Assembly: GCA_051313645.2 (NCBI GenBank)
Contig: JBNRSN020000029.1
Coordinates: forward strand, 40,982,001-41,046,000
Length of the DNA: 64,000 nucleotides
From: Centroscyllium fabricii
Taxonomy: Eukaryota
Direction: 5' to 3'
Shown piece after piece: positions 9,734-43,685 of the stretch (the first letter of the stretch is position 1; every line of letters begins with the position of its first letter). Position numbers and translations under genes: made by a program. The notes under the pieces were generated by a model. The model was not told where the DNA came from, did not search any database, and saw nothing but the letters and a program-made list of their open reading frames with translations.

Positions 9734-10231
9734 TGTCATAGGTTGGATTCCCCTTTAAATCCTAGGTGGGCTCTTCTCCTTTAAACTGGCCAGCACCTCG
9801 TTAACTACTGCATACACCTGATTGGACAGCCCAAATTAACCAGTAGTATCTTGAGCTGTATATAAGCTCCCACTTTGCACCATGAGTTTGCCAGATCGTT
9901 AAATCTCTTACTGTGATACATGTGTTTTTGTTCCTAGCTCTCTGATCCTGTCTATTCGTGATACTGACCTGCTTACCGGAAATTTCGATTTTATTCTGCT
10001 TGAACTCTGTGTTGGATTTGTCGCTCCCGTGAACGGACTACCTGGAAAATTACTGCTTCTGTATTTGGATTCTCTCCTACCTGAACTCTGTTTTGGACTT
10101 GTTGCCTCCGTGAACTTTCTGCCGTTATTGACTTACTGTTTCTATATCTTCTGACGACTCAGAAATAAAGGAATTTATTTCTACGCTGGTTTTCGGTGTT
10201 TTGCATTTGGGCCCAACCTACAACCGTTACA
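9734..10231 (+). repeat. 5' LTR of sushi-type element
   Basis: Direct repeat of 14754-15251; TATATAA at 9859-9865; AATAAA at about 10164. Confidence 0.95.
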
Positions 10232-10232
10232 G

Positions 10233-10243
10233 AACGATCTGGC
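10233..10243 (+). promoter_or_regulatory. self-priming primer-binding site
   Basis: AACGATCTGGC is the exact reverse complement of GCCAGATCGTT at 9890-9900; no TGG tRNA-type PBS follows the LTR. Confidence 0.85.
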
Positions 10244-10248
10244 CAGAA

Positions 10249-11217
10249 ATGGACCCAGCAGACACACCGAAGCGTCTGGCACAGGTCGAGTGCGCCCTAT
10301 TGCACCAGGGGCAGGCCTTGGGGAAGATATTCACTCAATTGGAGCAGCTAACCGCCGCCTGGATCCAGCGGGCAGCTTCAGATCCGGCAGAGATCCCACC
10401 ACCACCAGTCCCTGCTTCAGCATCGGTATCGGCACCCATGCCTCACCCACAAGGTCTCACACCCGAACCCCGGGTCGGGGTTCCGGAACGTTATGTCGGT
10501 GAACCTGAGCAATGCAATCCCTTCCTCACTAACTGTTCCATTCTGTTTTCTTTGCAGCCCCACACCTTTGCCAATGAGACGGCAAAGGTAGCCTTTGTTA
10601 TTAACCACCTTACAGGAAGAGCTCGTATTTGGGGAACCGCCGAGTGGGAGAGAGAGACTCTGGCTTGCTCTTCCTTCCAAAGGTTCGCCATCGAATTAAG
10701 AAGGATGTTCGGCATGGTGACCTTCGGCTCTGAAGCAGCTCGGGGACTCATGAATCTGAACCAGGGCAATCAGACAGTGGCTGATTACTCCATAGACTTC
10801 CGAATCAGAGCTCGGCAGAGTGATTGGAACTCTGCTGCATTATGTGACGTTTTTCTTCATGGGCTTGCAGAGTACATCAAGGATGAACTGGTCTCCTATG
10901 ATCTCCCTTCAACCCTGGATGAACTAATTAGTCTTGCCACCAGGATCGATCTCCATATCCAGGCGCGTCGACGTGAGAGACGACTGGGAATGACTGGTCG
11001 ACCTCCTCCGAAACGGACTCAAGAGATATTGGTGGCGCCCAGGTCTACTGCAACAGCAGGGTCAGAGTCAGTGGGCCCCGAACCAATGCAGTTGGGTCGC
11101 AGCAGTCTCTCATTGGTGGAGCATAAACGACGCCACCAGGGGAATCTCTGTTTGTACTGCAGCCAGGCCGGCCATTTTGTTTCCCTATGCCCAGCAAAAG
11201 GCCGGACTCACCAGTAG
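10249..11217 (+). CDS. gag: Gag (PEG10/sushi-like capsid with CCHC knuckle)
   Basis: MDPADTPK..., [51 protein letters not shown]; uninterrupted frame. Confidence 0.93.
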
Positions 11218-14200
11218 AGGGAGTCGTACTGGTGAGTCGAACTCCTACAAGACTCTCTCCCAATCCACAACCCTTGTGCCAGGCCAGACTTCTTCTTCCT
11301 AGGGGATCCCAGACTCTCGTCACCTTTATTGACTCTGGAGCGGACGTCAACATTATTGATGAGGATCTGGTCACACAGCTGGAGATTGACCGGGTTCCAT
11401 TGCCACAGCCGGTTCCTGCCAACGCCCTTGATGGCCACCTCCTGGGAACGGTGACACATCAGACCTCACCGGTTCATATGCTTATGTCTGGAAATCATCA
11501 TGAAAGCATTCAATTTCATATCGTGAAATCACCTCGGCTTCCTTTGATTCTGGGACACACTTGGCTTCGCCGCCACAACCCCCACATTGACTGGAACACG
11601 GGAGCTATTTTAGGGTGGAGTTCCTCCTGTCACCAGGTCTGTCTGAAACAGGCTACCGTCATCCGACAGCCATTAACACCTCTTCCCGCTTCAGATCTTT
11701 CGGTGGATCCAACTGAATACCATGATTTTAGGGAGGTATTCAGCAAAGCTAGAGCCACGTCACTACCTCCACATCGCCCCTATGACTGCGTCATTGATCT
11801 GCTGCCAGATTCTTCCCCACCCAAGGGACGTCTGTATTCTTTGTCTGCACCTGAGAGGGAGGCCATGGAAACGTACATCAGTGACTCTATGGCGGCGGGG
11901 ATCATCCGTTCCTCTTCATCACCTGCTGGGGCTGGATTCTTTTTTGTGGGCAAGAAGGATGGGTCGCTGCGACCATGCATCGACTACAGGGGCCTTAATG
12001 ACATTACGGTAAAGAACCGGTATCCTCTTCCTCTCATCTCTTCTGCTTTTGAGCTGTTACAGGGGGCGAACATCTTTACAAAGCTGGATCTTCGCAACGC
12101 CTATCATCTGGTCCGGATACGAGAGGGCGATGAATGGAAGACTGCTTTCAACACACCCTCTGGACATTACGAATACCTCGTAATGCCGTTCGGGTTAACC
12201 AACGCCCCGGCGGTATTCCAAGCCTTGGTTAATGATGTTTTAGGAGACATGCTGAACCGTTTTGTGTTCATGTACATGGACGACATTTTAATCTTTTCTA
12301 AGTCTCGTGAGGAGCATGTTCACCATGTCCAGACTGTCCTACAATGGCTTCTGGAGAACTCACTATTCGTGAAGGCAGAGAAGTGTGAGTTTCACGTCAC
12401 TACCGTTTCTTTCTTGGGGTACATCATTGCGCAGGGGAGCGTGCAGATGGATCCAGAGAAGGTGTCAGCTGTCGCGTCATGGCCTATTCCAGAGACACGT
12501 AAACAGCTACAGCGGTTTCTGGGATTCGCCAATTTCTATCGACGGTTCATTCGCGGCTACAGCACGGTAGCGGCCCCGTTATCGGCTCTTACCTCCTCTA
12601 AGGTGCCGTTCCTGTGGTCCTCTGCAGCGGAGGAGGCTTTTCGCGATCTCAGGTCCCGGTTCACCTCTGCTCCCATTCTCCAGGTGCCTGATCCGGATCA
12701 GCAGTTCGTGGTAGAGGTGGACGCATCAGATGTTGGAGTAGGGGCTATTCTGTCCCAATATTCGGCTTCCAACCAAAAGCTACATCCTTGTGCCTATTTT
12801 TCCAAACGCCTGTCCTCGGCTGAGATGAACTATGACATCGGGACCCGGGAGTTACTGGCGGTCAAAATGGCATTGGAGGAGTGGCGCCATTGGCTAGAGG
12901 GGACCAAGCTGCCGTTCCTAGTATGGACCGACCACAAAAACCTTGAATAGATTCGCATGGCCAAGAGGCTGAATTCACGGCAGGCTAGGTGGTCCCTCTT
13001 TTTTACCCGTTTCAAATTCACCCTCTCCTACAGGCCTGGTTCTCGCAATGTCAAGCCTGATGCTCTGTCCCGCGAGTTCCAGAAGGAGGAGGGTTCCACT
13101 CCTGGATCTGACCTCATCCTTCCAGCTCCTTGTCTTATTGCTGTGGTTACGTGGGAGATCGAGGAGAGGGTGAGATCAGCCGTGGAGGATCAGGCTGGAC
13201 CCAGCGGTTGTCCTCCCGACCGTCTATTCGTTCCCACGAACCTTCGACCTGATGTTCTCCTGTGGGCCCATGCTTCCAAGCTTTCCTGCCATCCGGGGGC
13301 TCAAAGGACCAAGGAGGTTATATTGCGGAGGTTCTGGTGGGATACGCTGGAAGAAGATACCCGGCAGTTTGTCAACGCCTGCTCGGTATGCAACCAACAC
13401 AAGCCGTCTCGTCGGGCTCCCGCTGGTCTCCTGCAACCTCTGCCGATACCACATCGTCCTTGGTCCCACATATCCTTGGACTTTGTTACCGGTCTGCCTC
13501 CATCCAAGGGACTAACCACGATCCTGACTGTGGTGGACCGATTCAGCAAGATGGCCCACTTCATACCTCTGCCTAAACTGCCCTCAGCGAAGGAGACAGC
13601 TGAACTTATGCTGCAACATGTTTTCCGGCTTCATGTGCTTCCTTTAGACGTAGTCTCTGATCGGGGTCCTCAATTTACGTCTGTATTCTGGAGGGAGTTC
13701 TGCAGTCTGATTGGGGCCACAGTCAGTCTGTCGTTGGGTTTTCATCCGCAGTCCAACGGGCAGTCAGAACGTATGAATCAGGAGATGGAGAAGGCGCTCC
13801 GATGCATAGTCTCCCAGAATCCCTCTTCCTGGTCCCAGCTACTCCTATGGGTAGAGTAAGCTCACAACACTCTGTCCAGTTCCGCCACCGGACTCTCTCC
13901 GTTCCAGTGCGCCTATGGATTACAGCCCACATTGTTTCCGGACCTGGAAAGGGAGGTTTCCTGTCCGTCCGTCCAGGCATTTATTCATCGTTGTCGCCGG
14001 ACATGGGAGCAGGCTCGGACTTCATTGCTTCGCTCGGCGGATCGCTACTCGGCTGCTGCCAACCGTCGTCACTCGGAAGCTCCTAAATATCAGGCTGGGC
14101 AGAAGGTGTGGCTCTCCACTAAGGACCTGCCTCTCCAAGTGGAGTCGAAGAAGCTTGCTCCCCGTTTGATCGGGCCCTTCGAGGTCCAGAAGATCATCAA

Positions 14201-14669
14201 CCCAGCTGCTGTGAGACTCAAGCTTCCTCAATCCATGCGGGTTCATCCCACGTTTCATGTTTCACGAATCAAACCAGCACGTGAGAGTGCTTTGGTTCCT
14301 GTTGCCACGCCCCCTCCACCTCCTCGTATGCTCGACGGTGGGTTGGTCTACGCTGTGCGTCGCCTGCTTCGCTCCCGTCGTCGAGGAAGAGGACTTCAGT
14401 ACCTGGTGGACTGGGAGGGGTATGGTCCAGAAGAGAGGTCCTGGGTTCCTGCTCGCCACATAGTGGATCCTCAACTTATAGTCGATTTCCACAAAAGGCA
14501 ACCCGACCAGCCAAGTAGGAGGACTGCGACCCCTGGGGAGTCTGGACAAGGGTCCGGTTCCGTGCAGTCTCTGGAAACCCTGAACGAGGAGGTACAATCT
14601 GCTAATGATGAAGATTCCCTTCATTCTTGTGATGAGATGGACGTGGATGAGGGCCCCGAGGAATGTTAG
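11187..14669 (+). pseudogene. pol: Pol (PR, RT, RNase H, IN, chromodomain), one reading frame with two premature stops
   Basis: FIDSGAD protease; YMDD RT; VEVDASDVG and TDHKNL RNase H; HHCC and DDE integrase; GPF motif; chromodomain [15 protein letters not shown]. ORFs 11187, 12957 and 13932 share one frame, broken by TAG (12948-12950) and TAA (13857-13859). Confidence 0.93.
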
Positions 14670-14753
14670 TCCCTCCTCCGCACCCCTCCGCCCACCCGAT
14701 TCTGGCATTTGGGGTTTGGGACGTCAGGAGTCGGCCCTTGAGGGGGGGGGTTC

Positions 14754-15251
14754 TGTCATAGGTTGGATTCCCCTTTAAATCCTAGGTGGGCTCTTCTCCT
14801 TTAAACTGGCCAGCACCTCGTTAACTACTGCATACACCTGATTGGACAGCCCAAATTAACCAGTAGTATCTTGAGCTGTATATAAGCTCGCACTTTGCAC
14901 CATGAGTTTGCCAGATCGTTAAATCTCTTACTGTGATACATGTGTTTTTGTTCCTAGCTCTCTGATCCTGTCTATTCGTGATACTGACCTGCTTACCGGA
15001 AATTTCGATTCTATTCTGCTTGAACTCTGTGTTGGATTTGTCGCTCCCGTGAACGGACTACCTGGAAAATTACTGCTTCTGTATTTGGATTCTCTCCTAC
15101 CTGAACTCTGTTTTGGACTTGTTGCTTCCGTGAACTTTCTGCCGTTATTGACTTACTGTTTCTATATCTTCTGATGACTCAGAAATAAAGGAATTTATTT
15201 CTACGCTGGTTTTCGGTGTTTTGCATTTGGGCCCAACCTACAACCGTTACA
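14754..15251 (+). repeat. 3' LTR of sushi-type element
   Basis: Direct repeat of 9734-10231, preceded by a poly-G PPT. Confidence 0.95.
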
Positions 15252-18418: not shown

Positions 18419-18703
18419 AATGTCTTATTATTTCAATAGTTGTACCTCACTTCAACTGCATAATAAGCAGAAATACAGTAAACATGAAACAAATATGTAA
18501 ATGATCTAAAATTTACAACACAAGGCGAGAGATACTGTTCAATATGCAAAGTTGTCGCTTTCTGTACAGTCGGGAAATTGTGTACAAATGCGCCGACATT
18601 GTGCCGGATATGTTACATTCAAATTTCTGTTAAAAATCGATTGCTTAATAGCAAACGTAAAATCTGTTATGAACCAGCGCAATCAGGCAGAATAATAGAA
18701 CAT

Positions 18704-21700
18704 TGTAGTGCATGCAGGCCTGAAGAACCGCGCTGGAGACAGTGAGATTGGATAACACTCATTTATTGCTTTACTCTGCAGGAGCCAGGTAGCGAAGAGA
18801 GTGAGCTACCTGGAACGGGCTTATTTAAAGGGCCCGCGATTGGTGACGTCACTACGCCAGAAGTCGCGGTGACGGCATCACGCTGGAAGTCGCAGTGACG
18901 TCATCACGTCACCCGATGGGCGGGGCCGTGCCCCGCAGTACTCCCGAGGCGGATTCGATGGTCCTGGTGGGCGTGTCGCCACACAGCTCCCCCCCAGAAT
19001 CTGTGAGGGAGAATAAAGTAAAAATAAAAAAAGGGAGCATAAAGTTAAAATAAAAAAAGGGAGAATAAAAGATGAGTCTCAGGCGAGGCATTGAGGTGGC
19101 CGGATGATGTGGCCGGCACATGTCGTGCACTGCTCGTTGTTCTGCGTGGGAGTGTGGGCGGGTTTTGGTGCGGTAGGGCGTCCGCATTTTGGTGGCTGCG
19201 CGGGGAATATTGTCTCACCCGCCATTACATGTGCCGGTTTGAGCCGGTCAATCGAGACAGTTTCAGTTCTGTTGCCCATTTTGATTTCGAATGTCTTAGG
19301 TCCCGCCCGAAGCACTCTGTACGGTCCGTCGTACTGTGGCTGTAGTGGTGGTCGATGTGCATTGTGGCGGACAAACACAAATTCGGCATTCTTGATGCCC
19401 TCTGGAACACGTGCTGCCGGCTCTCCATGCCGGGCCACCGTTAGTGGTTTGAACGATCCTGCCTGGTTGTTGAACTCTTTGAGGCACCGGTCAGCTGACC
19501 AGGGATCGTTGGGGTCTGCGAGGAACACGCCTGGCACGGTTAGGGGTTGGATGTAGACGAGTTCCGCCGCTGAGGCATGCAGGTCTTCCTTGGCCGCTGA
19601 GCGCAGGCCGAGAGTTACCCAGGGCAGGCGGTCGGTCCAGGTTGCATTCTTCAGAATGGCCCGTAGGGAAGCTTTGATGCAGCGGTGGAACCGTTCGCAG
19701 AGGCCGTTGGCCTGTGGGTGGTAGGCAGTGGTTCGGTGCAGGGTTACCCAGAGGTCATGGGCGATGGTCGCCCATAGTTTTGAGGTGAATTGGGGGCCCA
19801 TGTCCGACGTAATGTCGGTGGGTACGCCGAAACGTGCGACGCAGGTGGCGAAGAAGGCCCTGGCCAGGTCCGCAGTGGTGGTAGCGATGAGTGGGACCGC
19901 TTCCGGCCAGCGGGTGCTGCGGTCGACCATTGTCATGACGTGTGTACAACCCCGTGATGGCGCTAGTGGTCCGACCAGGTCGATGTGGACGTGGCCGAAG
20001 CGTCTAGCTGGGATGGTGAACGTTTCTAGTGGTGCCTTGATGTGTTGTATGTCGGTGGTAAACTCCGACATGGCCGCGAGCTGGCGCTGCTGCCTGGCCA
20101 ACCAGGGTTCGGTGATCTTAGCCATTGCAGGCACAAGTGGCTTGTGATCCACGACGGCTGTAAAGTGGCGGCCCTCTAAGAGGAAGCGGAAGTGGCGCAC
20201 TGCGAGGTAGGGAGCGAGTCGAAGGCGCTGTACTTCGCCTCCGGGGGCCGGAGTTGCTGGCTGAAAAAGGCCAGGGGTTGCCAGGAGTTGCCTGTCCACT
20301 GCTCGCAGACTGCTCCGACAGCGTGGTCGGAGGCGTCGGTGGTGAGGGCTACTCTGGCATTGGGCCTAGGGTGGGCTAGGAGCGTGGCATTGGCCAGGGC
20401 GGTTTTGGTTGCGCTGAAGGCGGTGGTGGCTTCGGCCGTCCACTCGACCGCAGCCTTGTTGGACTGCCCGCGGGTGGCCTGATAGAGGGGTGCCATGAGA
20501 ACGGCTGCTCCTGGGATGAAGCGGTTATAGAAATTAACCATCCCAAGGAATTCCTGCAGCCCCTTGATGGAGTGCGGGCGGGGGAATTCCTGGGCCACCT
20601 GCACCTTGGAGGGCAGGGGTATGGCCCCGGTCTGGGAAATGCGGTGGCCGAGGAAGTCGATCGTCTCGAGGCTGAACCGAAATTTGGAGGGGCTTATTAT
20701 TAGGCCGTGTTCGACCAGGCGTTTGAACAGGGTCCTGAAATGGATGAGGTGTTCCTGGGGTGAGGTGCTGGTCACGAGGATGTCATCCAGGTAGACGAAC
20801 GTGAACTGCAAGTCCCGTAGGACTGAGTCCATGTGGCGTTGGAAGGCCTGGGCCGCGTTTTTGAGTCCAAAGGGCATTCGGAGAAACTCGAAAAGGCCGA
20901 AAGGTTTAATGACCGCTGTCTTAGGGACGTCCGCCGGGTGCACTGGTACCTTGTGGTAACCCCGTACCAGGTCGATCTTTGAAAAGACCGTGCAGCCGGC
21001 TAGCCTTGCTGAGAAATCTTGGATGTGGGGGACGGGTTACCTTTCTGGGGTGGTGGCATTGTTGAGGCGGCGGTAGTCTCCGCAGGGGTGCCAGCCACCG
21101 CCAGGCTTGGGGGCGATGTGGAGGGGGGAGGCCCAGGGGCTGCTGGAGCGGCGGATTATGCCGAGTTGTTCCATGATGTGGAACTCGGTATGCACGTTCT
21201 CCAGCTTGGCCGGGTCCAGCCTGCGTGCGTGGGCATGGCCTGGAGGGCCTGTGGTGGTGATGTAATGCTCCACCCCATGCTTGGCCATGCGGGCTGTGAA
21301 GGAGGGGTTGGTGAGTGCTGGGAACTCCATGAGGAGCGTGCCGTATGTGCCGGAGTTCCGGGTTCGGCAGTGGGACGCTGCGTGGGCCTGATGTGCCGGC
21401 CCTGTGGAGCACGGGATGGTCGACATGTAGTGGATGTTGACCAGGCGGCACCGGGTCACGTCGACCAGTAGGCCATGGGCGCAGAGGAAATCCGCCCCGA
21501 GGAGGGGTAGTTTTACTTGGGCTGTGATGAAGTCCCACAGGTACGTGTGGCCTGCTAGCTTGATGGTGAGCTTGCGGGTGCCGTACGTAACTATCTCGGA
21601 GCCGTTTGCGGCTTCGAGTGGTGGGCCTTGGGTGCCTTGCTTGGATTCGGGGGGGGAGGCTGGCACGATGCTGTGCTGCGCGCCTGTGTCGCAGAGGAAG

Positions 21701-22869
21701 CGGAGGCCTGAGCCGCTGTCCGTGACAAAGAGCAGTGCTCCGGAGTGGCCTACGGACATGGTGGGGCTTGAGCTGGGCTGGGGTTTGAAGGTGCAGGGCT
21801 GGACCCAGCGCTGCGCTTTAGCTTCAAATCTGGTGTGATAGTAACACCAGCCGGGGCCTGTTGTGTGCGGCTTTTTGCGGTGTCGCGCTGGCCTGTGTTC
21901 AGACTTGGGGTCGGACCTGGGGTGCGCATGGTGGTGCTCCGGTGCCGTGGCAGCGGGCTCACACGTGGCGGAGCGGGAGCGCTTGGCCCTCATCAGCTTG
22001 TCGGCCTCCTCAGCCAGTTGCTCTCCACTGTAGTGGTAGAGGATCGTCAGAGCCGGTCTGATGGAGGGAGGCAGTTTGAGGAGGAACAAGGTGCGCTGAA
22101 TCGTGGCTGGGTCGCAATTGAGCGCTTCCATTTGGGCCCAGAGCTCCGATGGGTCTGAGTCCCCGAGTTCGAGGAGGTTAATGAGCTGGCAGTGGCGCTC
22201 AAACTGGGAGGGGGTGAATTTCTTTAGCAGCACAGCCTTAAGGAATTCATACCTGCCTGCGGTTGGTGCATGCTGTATCGTTGGCCACATTCGGTCGACC
22301 ATGGTCTGTGATAGGGCCGCGAAGAGCAGGTTGTAGCAATCGTCCCCCTGTACGCCATGGATGCGGTAGGTGTTCTCGATGCAGAGGAATCAGGCCGCTG
22401 GTCGTAGCTCCCAGAACTCTGGCAGAGTTGGTTTTTGGCCAGCGTTCTGGCCCAGTCTTTGAGGTCGCACTGTTTGGCTCCCTGATGGCATGTTGGTTTT
22501 GAGTGTACTGAGGCAGCTTGGCCCTCAGTCCTGCAGCATCTGCTTCATTTTGTTCCCTTGGAAGTCGTTCCAAGTATCGAGGTCACCACTGTAGTGCATG
22601 CAGGCCTGAAGAACCACGCTGGAGACAGTGAGATTGGATAACACTCATTTATTGCTTTACTCTGCAGTGGCTAGGTAGCGAAGAGAGTGAGCTACCTGGA
22701 ACGGGCTTATTTAAAGGGCCAGCGGTTGGTGACGTTACTACGCCGGAAGTCCCGGTGACGCCATCACGCCTGAAGTCGCGGTGTCGTCATCACATCACAC
22801 GATGGGCGGGGCCATGCCCCGCAGTACTCCCGAGGCGGATTCGATGGACTTGGTGGGCGTGTCGCCACA
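18704..22869 (-). mobile_element. Ty3/Gypsy LTR retrotransposon, CsRn1/Kabuki-like, decayed
   Basis: 280-bp LTRs at 18704-18983 and 22590-22869 with about 19 differences by eye; 4-bp TSD ACAT; PBS TGGTGACCTCGA (tRNA-Trp-like, 22577-22588); PPT is the reverse complement of 18987-18995. Confidence 0.93.
19079..22491 (-). pseudogene. gag-pol of the CsRn1-like element
   Basis: LPEFW..PAA*F Gag N-terminus; CYYHTRFEAKAQRWVQPC (CHCC knuckle with C>W); LCDTGA protease; YLDD RT; LTTDAS RNase H; HVHIDLVGP..D..E integrase; YDGPY. Contains stops, frameshifts and an internal deletion. Confidence 0.9.
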
Positions 22870-25689: not shown

Positions 25690-27300
25690 GGCCCTGAATT
25701 TCCGATCAGAGACTTCATGCGTGCGAATGCCTCGGATCGGAAGAAATCTGCGCACCTTCCCGCTGGCTCCGTCGGAAATGAGGCTTTCGATCCTGTGCCT
25801 CTGCTCCCCGAAATGCAGTGGCCCAGGTATCCCAGGGACGCATCCGGTTCGCTCGGGGTCACGTGGGCCATGGGGAACCAATCAACGAAGGGAAACCCTC
25901 TTTACACTTTTGACAGGTCTGAACGCGCAGATCTGTCAAAAGCAAGAACCGGGCTCACATTTAAAAACAGTTAAAAATTAAACATGTTTTTATCTCACGT
26001 ATTTAAAATGAGTTGAAATGACATTAATTTCAATATTTTAAACAAAAAATTATGTTTTGAAAAAATTAAAAATTTTAAGAGGATAAAAATGAAGTTTCCT
26101 ATTCAAAAAGTATTTGTGCATTAAAAATGAGTGAAATTACTTTTTTTTAAATTTTTTAAAACTCGTATATTGGTAAAAGCAGGCCTTATGGCCGTAGATC
26201 AAGGACCGGCCCCAGGATATCTCCAAGTTCACTCCCAAGGCGCGGGAGACTTTCGGTCGTTTTTGAGGTGCCGTGGGCGGGGGCAGTGGATCGAGGACCG
26301 GCCCCGGATCTCTCCAACTTCACCCCCAAGGTGCGGGAGACTCTCGGGTTTTTTGAGGTGCCGTCGGGGGGGTGGGCATAGATCGACGACTGGCCCCAGG
26401 ATCTCTCCAACTTCACTCCCAAGGTGCTGGAGACTTTCTTCAGTTTTTGAGGTGCCGTCGGGAGGGCCGTAGATCGAGGACAGGTCCCGGATCTCTCCAA
26501 CTTTACTCCCAAGGCGCGGGAGACATTTGGCACTTTTGCGGTGCCGGGGAAGCCGTGGATCATGCACCGGCCCCGGATCACTTCATCTTCACTCACAAGG
26601 CGCGAGAGACTTTTGACCGTTTCGAAGTACCGTTGTTGGAGTCGTGGGTCGAGTACCGGCCATGGATCTTCAAAACTTCACTCCAGAGATGCAGGAGCTC
26701 TGTGGCAGTTTCTGTGGTGTCGTTGGTGTGGCCGTGGGTCGAGCACCGGTCCCGAATCTTCACTCTCGATGTGCGAGAGTTCTGCGGAGGTCTGTGGTGG
26801 GTCTTTTTTTGAAGGACGGTGGAGTTGGAAAATCTTGGATGTCACTGGTTTTTGATTGGTCCCGTAGCCATCGGAAATCCAAATTCAGCAGTGCATTGCA
26901 GTGGATGGTATGGCGGAAGGAATACAAGGTCGCGCTGGCGAGCCAGAGCATCTGCCGACCCACAACTGATGGCGCTGGAGAATGGCTTGTCGTCTTGCGA
27001 GTTTCACGCATGCTGTGTATCTCTATGTTCTTTTGTTGCGCGGTTTGATGTATAGCACGTGTGGAAATAGCAATAAGCATTTCACTGTTCGAATTTTCTG
27101 TTCAATTCATGGGACAATAACATTTTACTTACTTACTTACTTATGCCTGCTTTTAGCAGTCGTCAGATTTTTAAAGGTTTTGAGCGGGCGGAAGTTATGC
27201 AGAGAGAGCCCAACTCCCTGCCCGCTGAGGCCCTTGACAGATTGCAAGTACCGTTTTAGCACATGCGCTTCGCCCGCGTGACTCATATGCACCTGTGGCG
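25690..27300. mobile_element. MITE copy carrying an internal insertion of about 950 bp
   Basis: Starts aat|GGCCCTGAATTTCCG; homologous to 1-746; hairpin TGGTAAAAGCAGG..CCTGCTTTTAG is split by 26190-27140. Confidence 0.65.
26190..26800 (+). repeat. GC-rich tandem array, unit about 90 bp, about 7 units, progressively diverged
   Basis: Units start near 26190, 26281, 26373, 26465, 26551, 26640 and 26730 (GATCGAGGACCGGCCCC..GGATCTCTCCAACTTCACTCCCAAGG). Confidence 0.85.
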
Positions 27301-40966: not shown

Positions 40967-41332
40967 CTGTTAAACGGAACACACCACATCATGTTACAGT
41001 CTGTAGAACCGTTTTTATCTCATTGTGCCAAATGCTGTTTCGAGCATTGAATGTGCAAGTGAAACGTACAGGATGCAATGTGCAATTCTAATTCGTAAAG
41101 GGTGATGCCTCCTCCATAGGCAAGCAAAACAATATATGTCAGTGGATTTATACACTAATCTTTCATATTTTAACATCCACAATAAGCAACTGCTCTTCGG
41201 GTTCCCACATCACAATCGGACATAACTCGACATAATTATAAAATAAGGTAAATTATATTCAACAGAATTATAGGCCAGGGTATGTAAGCACACACTGATG
41301 TTCCACTTCGAACATCGCATCACAGCTATAAT

Positions 41333-43626
41333 TGTCACAGGGTGCCTGTCCCTTTAAGAATTCAAAACAGTTTTGTTGTGTTTCACACCTGTTTTGAGGA
41401 CTGGGTTCCCCTGTTATTTCATTATTTATTCTATTATCTGTGTCAATTGCTTGTTGGGTTCCTGTTCTCATTGCCTTCAGGTTATTGGCTATCACCAAAT
41501 TGTATGTTGGCTGGTTTTAGTTCATAAGCTGGAGGTTGTGATGAGAGCAGGGCGGGATCATTGTGAATGTACTGGACTTCTATTACACATTCTACAAGCC
41601 ACTAGAGGGAGTGGTTGCTGCTTCTGTGCTCCTGGAGGGGCTATGGTTTTGGACTTTCCCTTGCCCGATTGAGGACGGATTCCCTTTGGACCACTCGGCT
41701 AGGGTGAGACTAGCTGGAGCAGCTAAAGTGAGACTGGCTGTTGAGTAGTCTCCAGTGACTTTCTAGTTGTCATCTGTCGGGACATTGAGTTCAGCCACCG
41801 GCAGCACAGGCTGAGTTGCTTAAGAGGGGCAATGGGGTTGGAGCTCAGATCACTCTGCCTTGACATTGCGCCCTGCTATCTGTAACTCAGGCATGGACAA
41901 TTCATATGTTGAGTAAGGGCGTTCCCCTGCTTGTGGATCTGAATCTACTACTTGGACATTTGTTTCATTTTCATCCGAACCTAGGTTTGGACATTTGATA
42001 CCTGTTATGCAGAAGCTGTTCCCAAATCCTCTACGGGGAGTTGTATTGTGATGTCCTACTCGCAGAGGAGAACTTGTTCGTTTCTCTTAAAGCAGTTGGA
42101 TTGTGATGTCCTGCTTATAGAGGAAGACTCGTTTAAGTTGGACAGTGATGCCTGGACTTATATTCCTAGGGAAAATGACGCGCTTTGTTGCGTGGCACCC
42201 CTCTACCCATTTCTCACTATTTTGGGAAGTTCTGTGCCAGTCTTTAGTTAGACTTGTGTTTAATATGTGTACTATATATTTGTATGTTAATACTATTCTA
42301 TGTGGTTTTGTTATAAAGGAGTTTTGTTATAAAAGACGTTTCAGTGTCTCTGCATTTGGGCCCCGCCCTCATTCCGTTTCACCAATCCGTTTACAGAATG
42401 ATCCCGCCAAATTTGGGGCTCAGCAGACACTGTAGCGTCTAAACACTCCTTAAAATTTTTTCTTGAAGACTGTTGTCTCTTCTCCGTACCCCTCCGCCCA
42501 CCCTATTCCGGCATATTGGGTATTTGGCCCGTCGCAGTCGTCCCTTAAGGGGGGGGTTCTGTCACAGGTTGCCTGTCCCTTTAAGAATTCAAAACAGTTT
42601 TGTTGTGTTTCACACCTGTTTTGAGGACTGGGTTCCCCTGTTATTTCATTATTTATTCTATTATCTGTGTCAATTGCTTGTTGGGTTCCTGTTCTCATTG
42701 CCTTCAGGTTATTGGCTATCACCAAATTGTATGTTGGCTGGTTTTAGTTCATAAGCTGGAGGTTGTGATGAGAGCAGGGCGGGATCATTGTGAATGTACT
42801 GGACTTCTATTACACATTCTACAAGCCACTGGAGGGAGTGGTTGCTGCTTCTGTGCTCCTGGAGGGGCTATGGTTTTGGACTTTCCCTTGCCCGATTGAG
42901 GACGGATTCCCTTTGGACCACTCGGCTAGGGTGAGACTAGCTGGAGCAGCTAGAGTGAGACTGGCTGTTGAGTAGTCTCCTGTGACTTTCTAGTTGTCAT
43001 CTGTCGGGACATTGAGTTCAGCCACCGGCAGCACAGGCTGAGTTGCTTAAGAGGGGCAATGGGGTTGGAGCTCCGATCACTCTGCCTTGACATTTCGCCC
43101 TGCTATCTGGAACTCAGGCATGGACAATTCATATGTTGAGTAAGGGCGTTCCCCTGCTTGTGGATCTGAATCTACTACTTGGACATTTGTTTCATTTTCA
43201 TCCGAACCTAGGTTTGGACATTTGATACCTGTTATGCAGAAGCTGTTCCCAAATCCTCTACGGGGAGTTGTATTGTGATGTCCTACTCGCAGAGGAGAAC
43301 TTGTTCGTTTCTCTTAAAGCAGTTGGATTGTGATGTCCTGCTTATAGAGGAAGACTCGTTTAAGTTGGACAGTGATGCCTGGACTTATATTCCTAGGGAA
43401 AATGACGCGCTTTGTTGCGTGGCACCCCTCTACCCATTTCTCACTCTTTTGGGAAGTTCTGTCTGTGCCAGTCTTTAGTTAGACTTGTGTTTAATATGTG
43501 TACTATATATTTGTATGTTAATACTATTCTATGTGGTTTTGTTATAAAGGAGTTTTGTTATAAAAGACGTTTCAGTGTCTCTGCATTTGGGCCCCGCCCT
43601 CATTCCGTTTCACCAATCCGGTTACA
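41333..43626 (+). mobile_element. non-autonomous, non-coding LTR retroelement (TRIM-like, long LTRs) related to the sushi-type element
   Basis: LTRs at 41333-42395 and 42560-43626 (about 9 substitutions plus a 4-bp indel); TG..CA ends; 5-bp TSD ATAAT; 164-bp core with self-priming PBS at 42397-42408 and poly-G PPT at about 42547-42556. Confidence 0.92.
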
Positions 43627-43685
43627 ATAATTCAAAACTCCACGCCAATGATTCAGCAGAAGCAGAAGTTTACTATGTCATTTAC

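Follow-up and report, generated by a model that had tools for sequence, protein, structure and literature searches.

The window, by which we mean the whole 64,000-nucleotide stretch of Centroscyllium fabricii DNA analysed here, contains on its forward strand a 2,294-bp element that consists of two long terminal repeats (LTRs) and little else, and that we call a mini. Its 5' LTR (1,063 bp, 41333-42395) and 3' LTR (1,067 bp, 42560-43626) enclose an interior of only 164 bp, and the target site duplication (TSD) ATAAT is present on both sides (41328-41332 and 43627-43631). The LTRs differ at 9 of 1,063 aligned positions (99.15% identity) and by one 4-nt indel, so that the near-identical LTRs of ~1.06 kb, the 5-bp TSD and the short interior described in an earlier note on this DNA are all borne out. 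Within the 5' LTR, the hexamer at the TATA position (CATAAG in this copy, 41523-41528) lies 29 nt upstream of a predicted 11-nt self-primer (41552-41562) that probably forms the first bases of the RNA. From the variation of the primer among copies and from the aberrant junctions described below, we infer a U3 at 41333-41551, a long R starting at 41552 and a short U5. R contains a hairpin beginning with a splice-donor-like GTAAG (41913-41930), and further downstream are the position of the putative poly(A) signal (TATAAA in this copy, 42312-42317) and one arm of a U5-leader duplex (42334-42364). One G past the LTR end is the primer binding site (PBS, 42397-42407), followed by a conserved C at 42408, by the leader arm of the duplex (42415-42440), a gag-start remnant without a gag frame, and by a block at 42464-42559 that is homologous to the pol end and 3' UTR of chromodomain elements and has the polypurine tract (PPT, 42547-42556) inside it. 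A perfect 10-nt palindrome at 42542-42551 overlaps the PPT, with a near-palindrome there in full-size elements; it is possibly a dimerisation signal.

The stretch 42397-42408 is the exact complement of 41551-41562, no longer match exists, and the 11-mer is present anywhere in only 8 of 20,000 base-shuffled LTRs. The 12-nt PBS match described previously therefore stands as a pairing in this copy. We set the conserved primer at 11 nt from 41552 because the base preceding the 11-mer differs among subfamilies.

A full-size element with 498-bp LTRs, the TSD GGATG and the order gag, protease, reverse transcriptase (RT), RNase H, integrase and chromodomain is found on the same strand at 9734-15251 and is likely to represent the helper type. 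It has the same layout with a different 11-mer. Its pol is in pieces, interrupted by stops, and hence this copy itself is no working helper. The distance from TATAAG (9861) to its primer (9890) is 29 nt, equal to that from CATAAG (41523) to the 11-mer (41552) in the mini, and the three compensated differences between the two primer/PBS pairs reported earlier are real. The large element has counterparts of the opening 45 nt of the mini interior in its leader and gag start (10232-10277) and of the closing 95 nt in its pol end and 3' UTR (14658-14753), as had been noticed, and the LTR bodies, described as unrelated by eye, align only gappily except at the U5 end. The mini leader, U5 end and pre-PPT block are homologous to those of chromodomain elements of the same genome, which we label as putatively sushi-type on the basis of their domain order, chromodomain and self-complementary PBS. 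On the minus strand, the window also carries a second LTR element (18701-22869, with an LTR segment 93% identical) whose RT, RNase H and integrase frames are broken and for which no chromodomain was matched, and at 26190-26632 there are five tandem ~90-bp units that are 64-83% alike.

The mini belongs to a multi-copy family and is not a one-off deletion product: an exact junction pattern found 5,226 junctions in the 7.2-Gb genome (none with the reversed-pattern control), a figure to which tandem arrays contribute several junctions each and from which mutated copies are missing. An independent U5-side pattern gave 4,920 sites genome-wide; a further count of 13,872 includes some LTR ends twice and is not a copy number. 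Searching with the mini interior returned 1,985 candidates, and the best 40 of these, the ones scored, were all at least 96% identical. From 100 matches listed for a single contig we took 60 loci, of which 55 were the first new ones in list order and 5 were selected as PBS variants. The interior measured 152-190 bp in 59 of them, the remaining one having a decayed PPT and an interior that is short by eye. All 54 copies with both ends in view had distinct TSDs (5 bp in 50, 6 bp in 4), and their LTR pairs were 96.0-100% identical (median 99.5%), which agrees with the recent mobility proposed before. The 52 copies that we aligned are 70-97% identical to the window copy. Such diverged subfamilies with near-identical LTR pairs imply that many subfamilies moved recently and that the lineage is much older than its copies. 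All of them have one common short interior. In several, TATAA stands in place of the CATAAG of the window copy and AATAAA in place of its TATAAA, and the poly(A)-signal position reads AATAAA or ATTAAA in most other representatives. At L006 / L051, a window-type copy carries, inside its 3' LTR, a copy from a diverged subfamily (72-78% identical).

The family has many solo LTRs, which made up 16 of the 20 loci taken from the best LTR-body matches, the other 4 being minis, and there are tandem arrays with up to 8 mini junctions, such as the one at G000:C1:561421734-561429727, where 8 junctions are spaced ~1,140 bp apart. Both features point to frequent recombination, and with it to an alternative in which the primer-PBS match is inherited and no longer primes, some other RNA or DNA end does, and the family has spread mainly by DNA recombination or tandem amplification. 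The distinct TSDs at 54 of 54 dispersed copies need integration, and we return to this alternative below with two further results.

A second alternative keeps the self-priming and attributes the movement of the family to a coding parent that has these long LTRs too, the minis being repeated deletion products of it. We found no coding element with this PBS or LTR by exact patterns or among the best 40 of 1,300-1,985 candidates scored, a scope that leaves some room for such a parent, given that the patterns need exact junctions. A pattern search for a gag start after the mini PBS found none, and the best LTR-body loci were the 4 minis and 16 solo LTRs mentioned above. Sixteen further loci with unusual leaders had no coding interior either. 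Several candidates for a parent were discarded. Four matches to the mini PBS with a non-mini start codon were all mutated minis, as were minis all 20 checked of the 269 PBS+ATGG junctions; of two seemingly long interiors, one was a tandem and the other a miss in calling the PPT; and an LTR spacing of 5,672 bp came from a solo LTR inside a tandemly repeated, unrelated gypsy element (at L150 and L151, a family solo LTR with TSD sits in this element, whose tandem unit is 5,672 bp). Considering these results and the single short interior shared by all subfamilies, we judge a coding parent of this kind very unlikely.

Mobilisation in trans by the chromodomain elements of the same genome appears far better placed. 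Of 20 gag-start loci examined, 11 gave both LTRs, corresponding to 7 full-size and 4 short elements, with LTR identities of 94.5-99.8% in the full-size ones. Of the 11, 8 had a 5-bp TSD and 1 a 6-bp TSD, and for 2 no TSD was called. The ages, the TSD lengths and the cis-acting ends fit a presumed mobilisation of the minis by such elements.

Primer and PBS change together in three subfamilies. The minis show five pairings. In two of them the primer is GCGGGATCATT, facing either a fully matched PBS or one that leaves a G-U pair at the end; the other three are double-sided variants, in which the third base is T, the third and sixth bases are both T, or the third base is C. Over 649 primer/PBS cells, 623 were Watson-Crick, 20 G-U and 6 mismatched. 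In a tree of 53 copies with the primer and PBS sites masked, the first two double-sided changes formed nested supported clades of 15 rows (98/93) and 6 rows (100/100), neither with a half-changed row. The third class lies outside this tree and was found at 10 of 16 further loci, 8 of them with perfect pairing. These are three events and not hundreds, and the count of paired cells is partly circular because each primer was picked as the stretch that best matched its PBS; the spacing of 29 nt after the TATA-position hexamer, seen in 52 of 59 copies, is separate from that. Gag-start elements (10,816 gag-start junctions by pattern) carry their own matched primer/PBS pairs. In one of their families (L056, L066, L072 and L084), both bases of the eleventh pair have changed to a mismatch, which suggests that this family uses a 10-nt primer. 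The mini PBS is not tRNA-like, as had been claimed: the TGG that would match a tRNA 3' end is absent from its first 8 nt and the site co-varies with the LTR 11-mer, while its longest tRNA match is 4-5 nt in a weak comparison with the Lys and Cys isotypes only. The minis have at least 10 nt, located 0-5 bp past the 5' LTR, that are complementary to the 5' LTR, which is the criterion for Tf1/sushi elements given in PMC6317226 (in part).

A U5-leader duplex is predicted alongside the primer-PBS helix. In 19 minis and 13 gag-start elements, 89.6% of 809 cells were paired, against 30.5-42.6% when the arms were slid. For two covariation measures, none of 500 shuffles attained the observed value, two of the five measures fail to beat the shuffles (170/500 and 314/500), and the relatedness of the copies inflates the others. 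The helix has a predicted energy of -35 to -48 kcal/mol in mini RNAs and usually wins nested folding with the leader. With the leader omitted, the primer-PBS helix had a mean probability of 0.85-0.99 in 15 of 15 mini RNAs; with the leader included, it fell to 0.00-0.10 in 13 of 15, since nested folding cannot hold both helices and they could coexist only as a pseudoknot, which the folding program cannot model. For the primer-PBS helix of the large element of the window the mean probability was 0.99. A third duplex, in which the U5 end would pair with bases downstream of the primer, is predicted at -3 to -13 kcal/mol; it is weak in 3 of 15 minis and its register varies among subfamilies. According to these models, the U5-leader stem of the Tf1 'pretzel' is kept in the minis without the gag frame. 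The loss of the gag start reported earlier holds across copies, for the leader ATG, where present, opens 6-13 codons at 19 of 20 loci and 44 at the other.

The loop between primer and PBS spans ~740-940 nt in minis versus ~260-520 nt in gag-start elements, and the length and content of R vary through internal duplications and deletions. In 15 of 15 subfamily representatives, the stem of the R hairpin is unchanged and its loop differs; our guess would be that it blocks polyadenylation in the 5' LTR. Apart from local hairpins, we found no global conserved structure in R (structure conservation index of at most 0.49, with unreliable column-shuffle z values), and a search of the LTR against Rfam (E up to 1) and for tRNAs gave no match, hence no hammerhead and no 5S- or tRNA-derived piece. 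It is conceivable that R encodes a protein and that the element is a cargo carrier instead of being purely non-coding, as 10 of 53 copies, all in one clade, have open frames of 200-272 codons just past the primer, a length that none of 100 dinucleotide shuffles attained. Such a frame is missing from the window copy, no Pfam match was found at E 0.1, and pN/pS was 0.64-1.32 over 12 comparisons, with no consistent third-position excess and many 1-nt indels, all of which makes a protein in R highly improbable. To judge from these comparisons, the long R is not a conserved protein. The open frames of L088, L108, L123 and L131 (261-272 codons) extend from just past the primer through R, U5 and PBS, and in the clade of these copies, close relatives included, both other frames have more stops than this one.

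Besides the regular copies, the genome holds aberrant insertions, first seen at two loci in which a PBS is followed by the reverse complement of U3. A pattern search with four primer classes gave 29 aberrant junctions pivoting on the primer/PBS pair. Twenty-three of these read LTR-G-PBS-inverted own U3, the inverted arm being 98.6-100% identical to the own U3 and ending at the LTR start. The full-length class (7 of 7 with the order LTR-interior-LTR-G-PBS-inverted U3) always lies within an exact TSD. Among the 16 loci of the one-LTR class, the TSD is exact in 14 (12 distinct insertions, as three loci represent one duplicated site), has a one-base mismatch in 1 and is absent in 1. The other 6 junctions are of a reciprocal kind, in which the primer is followed by a U5-R piece in inverted orientation; 3 of them have a TSD and in 3 none was callable. 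At L254, L255 and L257, the order inside the TSD is U3, primer, inverted U5-R piece and the remainder of the element. The TSDs around the two-U3 insertions indicate that these were formed before integration. Among gag-start elements, 7 of 10 matches to the aberrant pattern were the same two-U3 product, 3 with an exact 5-bp TSD, so both types of element pass through the same chemistry.

These insertions also bear on the recombination alternative left above. A relic primer would not account for fresh double-sided changes after the loss of coding, nor recombination for two-U3 insertions that carry TSDs and so predate integration, and together with the TSDs of the dispersed copies they make this the least probable of the alternatives weighed here, despite the arrays and solo LTRs. 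Self-priming has its best evidence in the aberrant insertions. Normal genomic RNA holds no template for a PBS behind the 3' LTR, which would be expected from the copying of a retained primer and fits it, although a tandem donor could have supplied it too. In 3 of the 7 full-length cases, the PBS of the element itself ends in T and the terminal copy in C, as complementarity to the primer demands; the same C could come from a switch, 10 nt in, to a DNA copy of the primer. At junctions whose primer is preceded by a base other than G, the 11-mer was followed by the U3-templated base in 4 minis and by an unmatched C in 5, the corresponding numbers in gag-start elements being 2 and 3. Both types together give 14 informative junctions, 8 of which have an extra C past the eleventh base. 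The unmatched C may be a copied cap, with the conserved C after the genomic PBS as an alternative source. Cap copying is not mentioned in PMC3035444 (in part), and a literature search covering sources other than subscription journals found no report of the two-U3 product.

Taken as a whole, the data describe a large non-coding LTR retrotransposon family whose PBS is complementary to 11 nt of its own LTR, and we are confident in reading it as probably primed by the 5' end of its own RNA and as probably packaged, copied and integrated in trans by the sushi-type chromodomain elements of the same genome. Polymerase II would start at 41552 and produce an RNA of ~2 kb (R-U5-PBS-interior-PPT-U3-R). 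Its first 11 nt and the PBS, ~830 nt apart, would form one helix, and U5 and the leader would form another at the same time. By analogy with Tf1, the RNase H of the helper would cut after nucleotide 11, and RT would then extend from the G preceding the PBS. In Tf1, the 11-nt primer and the RNase H cut are known (PMC7175516, in part), three duplexes forming a 'pretzel' are needed (10.1101/2022.12.06.519325, in part) and about 50% of the cDNA keeps a single-stranded PBS tail (PMC11042837, in part). The primer would likewise remain on the minus strand of the mini and be copied into a PBS tail at the plus-strand 3' end. On rare occasions this tail might pair back with the primer sequence at the U3/R border and be extended through U3, giving a cDNA with two U3 ends that integrase could still insert. 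With priming in cis, the parasite would not have to match the primer of its helper, and its own primer would be free to drift. The family may have originated when an internal deletion, long ago, removed the part between about codon 12 of gag and the final pol codons; a long independent evolution and growth of R would have followed.

We give even odds to a more detailed proposal. It holds that the two-U3 insertions are fossil RT products recording a retained 11-nt capped self-primer in a vertebrate, which would fix the RNA start to the base, the extra C being the copied cap; and that a gene-less, tRNA-independent lineage with 1-kb LTRs could rise to thousands of copies, and its primers evolve separately, because self-priming spared it any need to match the primer of its helper.

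Neither self-priming nor the non-coding LTR element is new in itself. Tf1 and Tf2 of Schizosaccharomyces pombe, sushi-ichi, Tj1 and Tosmo1-3 resemble the minis in having a PBS complementary to an 11-nt LTR stretch and a pretzel-type U5-leader duplex (PMC7175516, 10.1101/2022.12.06.519325, PMC11042837 and PMC4600332, all in part), and the PBS tail at Tf1 cDNA ends has a likely counterpart in the aberrant junctions of the minis (PMC11042837, in part). These elements encode gag-pol with an integrase chromodomain, which is absent from the mini and present in the element at 9734, and the primer sequence is family-specific. The mini probably acts like a Tf1/sushi element and derives from one, but it is not a coding member. 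Its organisation recalls that of TRIMs, described in plants, ants and bivalves and including Cassandra, Helenus and Ajax, which also have two LTRs, a short non-coding interior, PBS, PPT and TSDs, and which share with it tandem arrays with common LTRs, solo LTRs and mobilisation in trans, the latter presumed for the mini (PMC6934838, PMC10886601 and PMC13570524, in part). However, TRIMs are below 1 kb with repeats of 100-250 bp (PMC6934838, in part), as opposed to 2,294 bp and LTRs of ~1 kb in the mini, and PMC13570524 (in part) applies the term more broadly. Their PBS is complementary to a tRNA, that of vertebrate Helenus to tRNA 3' ends (PMC10886601, in part), whereas the mini PBS has no TGG and co-varies with its own LTR; nor does the mini LTR have the 5S- or tRNA-derived segment of Cassandra, Helenus and Ajax. 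LARDs are non-coding LTR elements with long LTRs as well, but they exceed 4 kb with a long non-coding interior (PMC13570524, in part), unlike the 164 bp of the mini. Retrozymes have a hammerhead ribozyme in the LTR, for which the mini gave no Rfam match at E up to 1. They depend on gypsy-type helpers. Like the mini, they are non-autonomous LTR elements (PMC4918200, in part). The mini combines probable Tf1/sushi-like priming with a TRIM-like lifestyle, and lacks both the size and tRNA PBS of the original TRIMs and the coding features of Tf1/sushi elements.

Self-priming has been demonstrated in yeast Tf1 and implicated in other hosts up to vertebrates (PMC4600332, in part). In the literature outside subscription journals, Repbase and Dfam, our search found no reported self-priming non-autonomous LTR family; the supplements of PMC6317226 (in part) list predicted self-primers and may bear on this. 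What is new here are the aberrant junctions pivoting on the primer/PBS pair, which offer a test of self-priming that needs nothing but DNA and can be applied to any assembly by searching for them. The family also offers natural compensatory mutants that arose without coding constraint, and a minimal map of the cis signals for helper recognition (~45 nt of leader, ~95 nt before the LTR and the LTR ends). Annotation pipelines that demand a tRNA PBS or LTRs below 500 bp would overlook a family of more than 5,000 junctions and many more solo LTRs.

Other shortened elements occur at the gag-start loci. The 4 short ones among the 11 resolved (L178:876-2708, L179:886-2733, L186:849-2696 and L188:4353-6200) are a second non-autonomous kind, with interiors of 1.9-2.0 kb, no RT or integrase match in the two that were scanned, and a single frame of 611-616 codons for gag and protease, to which L178 adds a chromodomain; their LTR pairs are 99.7-100% identical. 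At L060 and L085, the PPT follows ~710 bp past the LTR end, and these are shorter deletion derivatives that keep the parental LTR.
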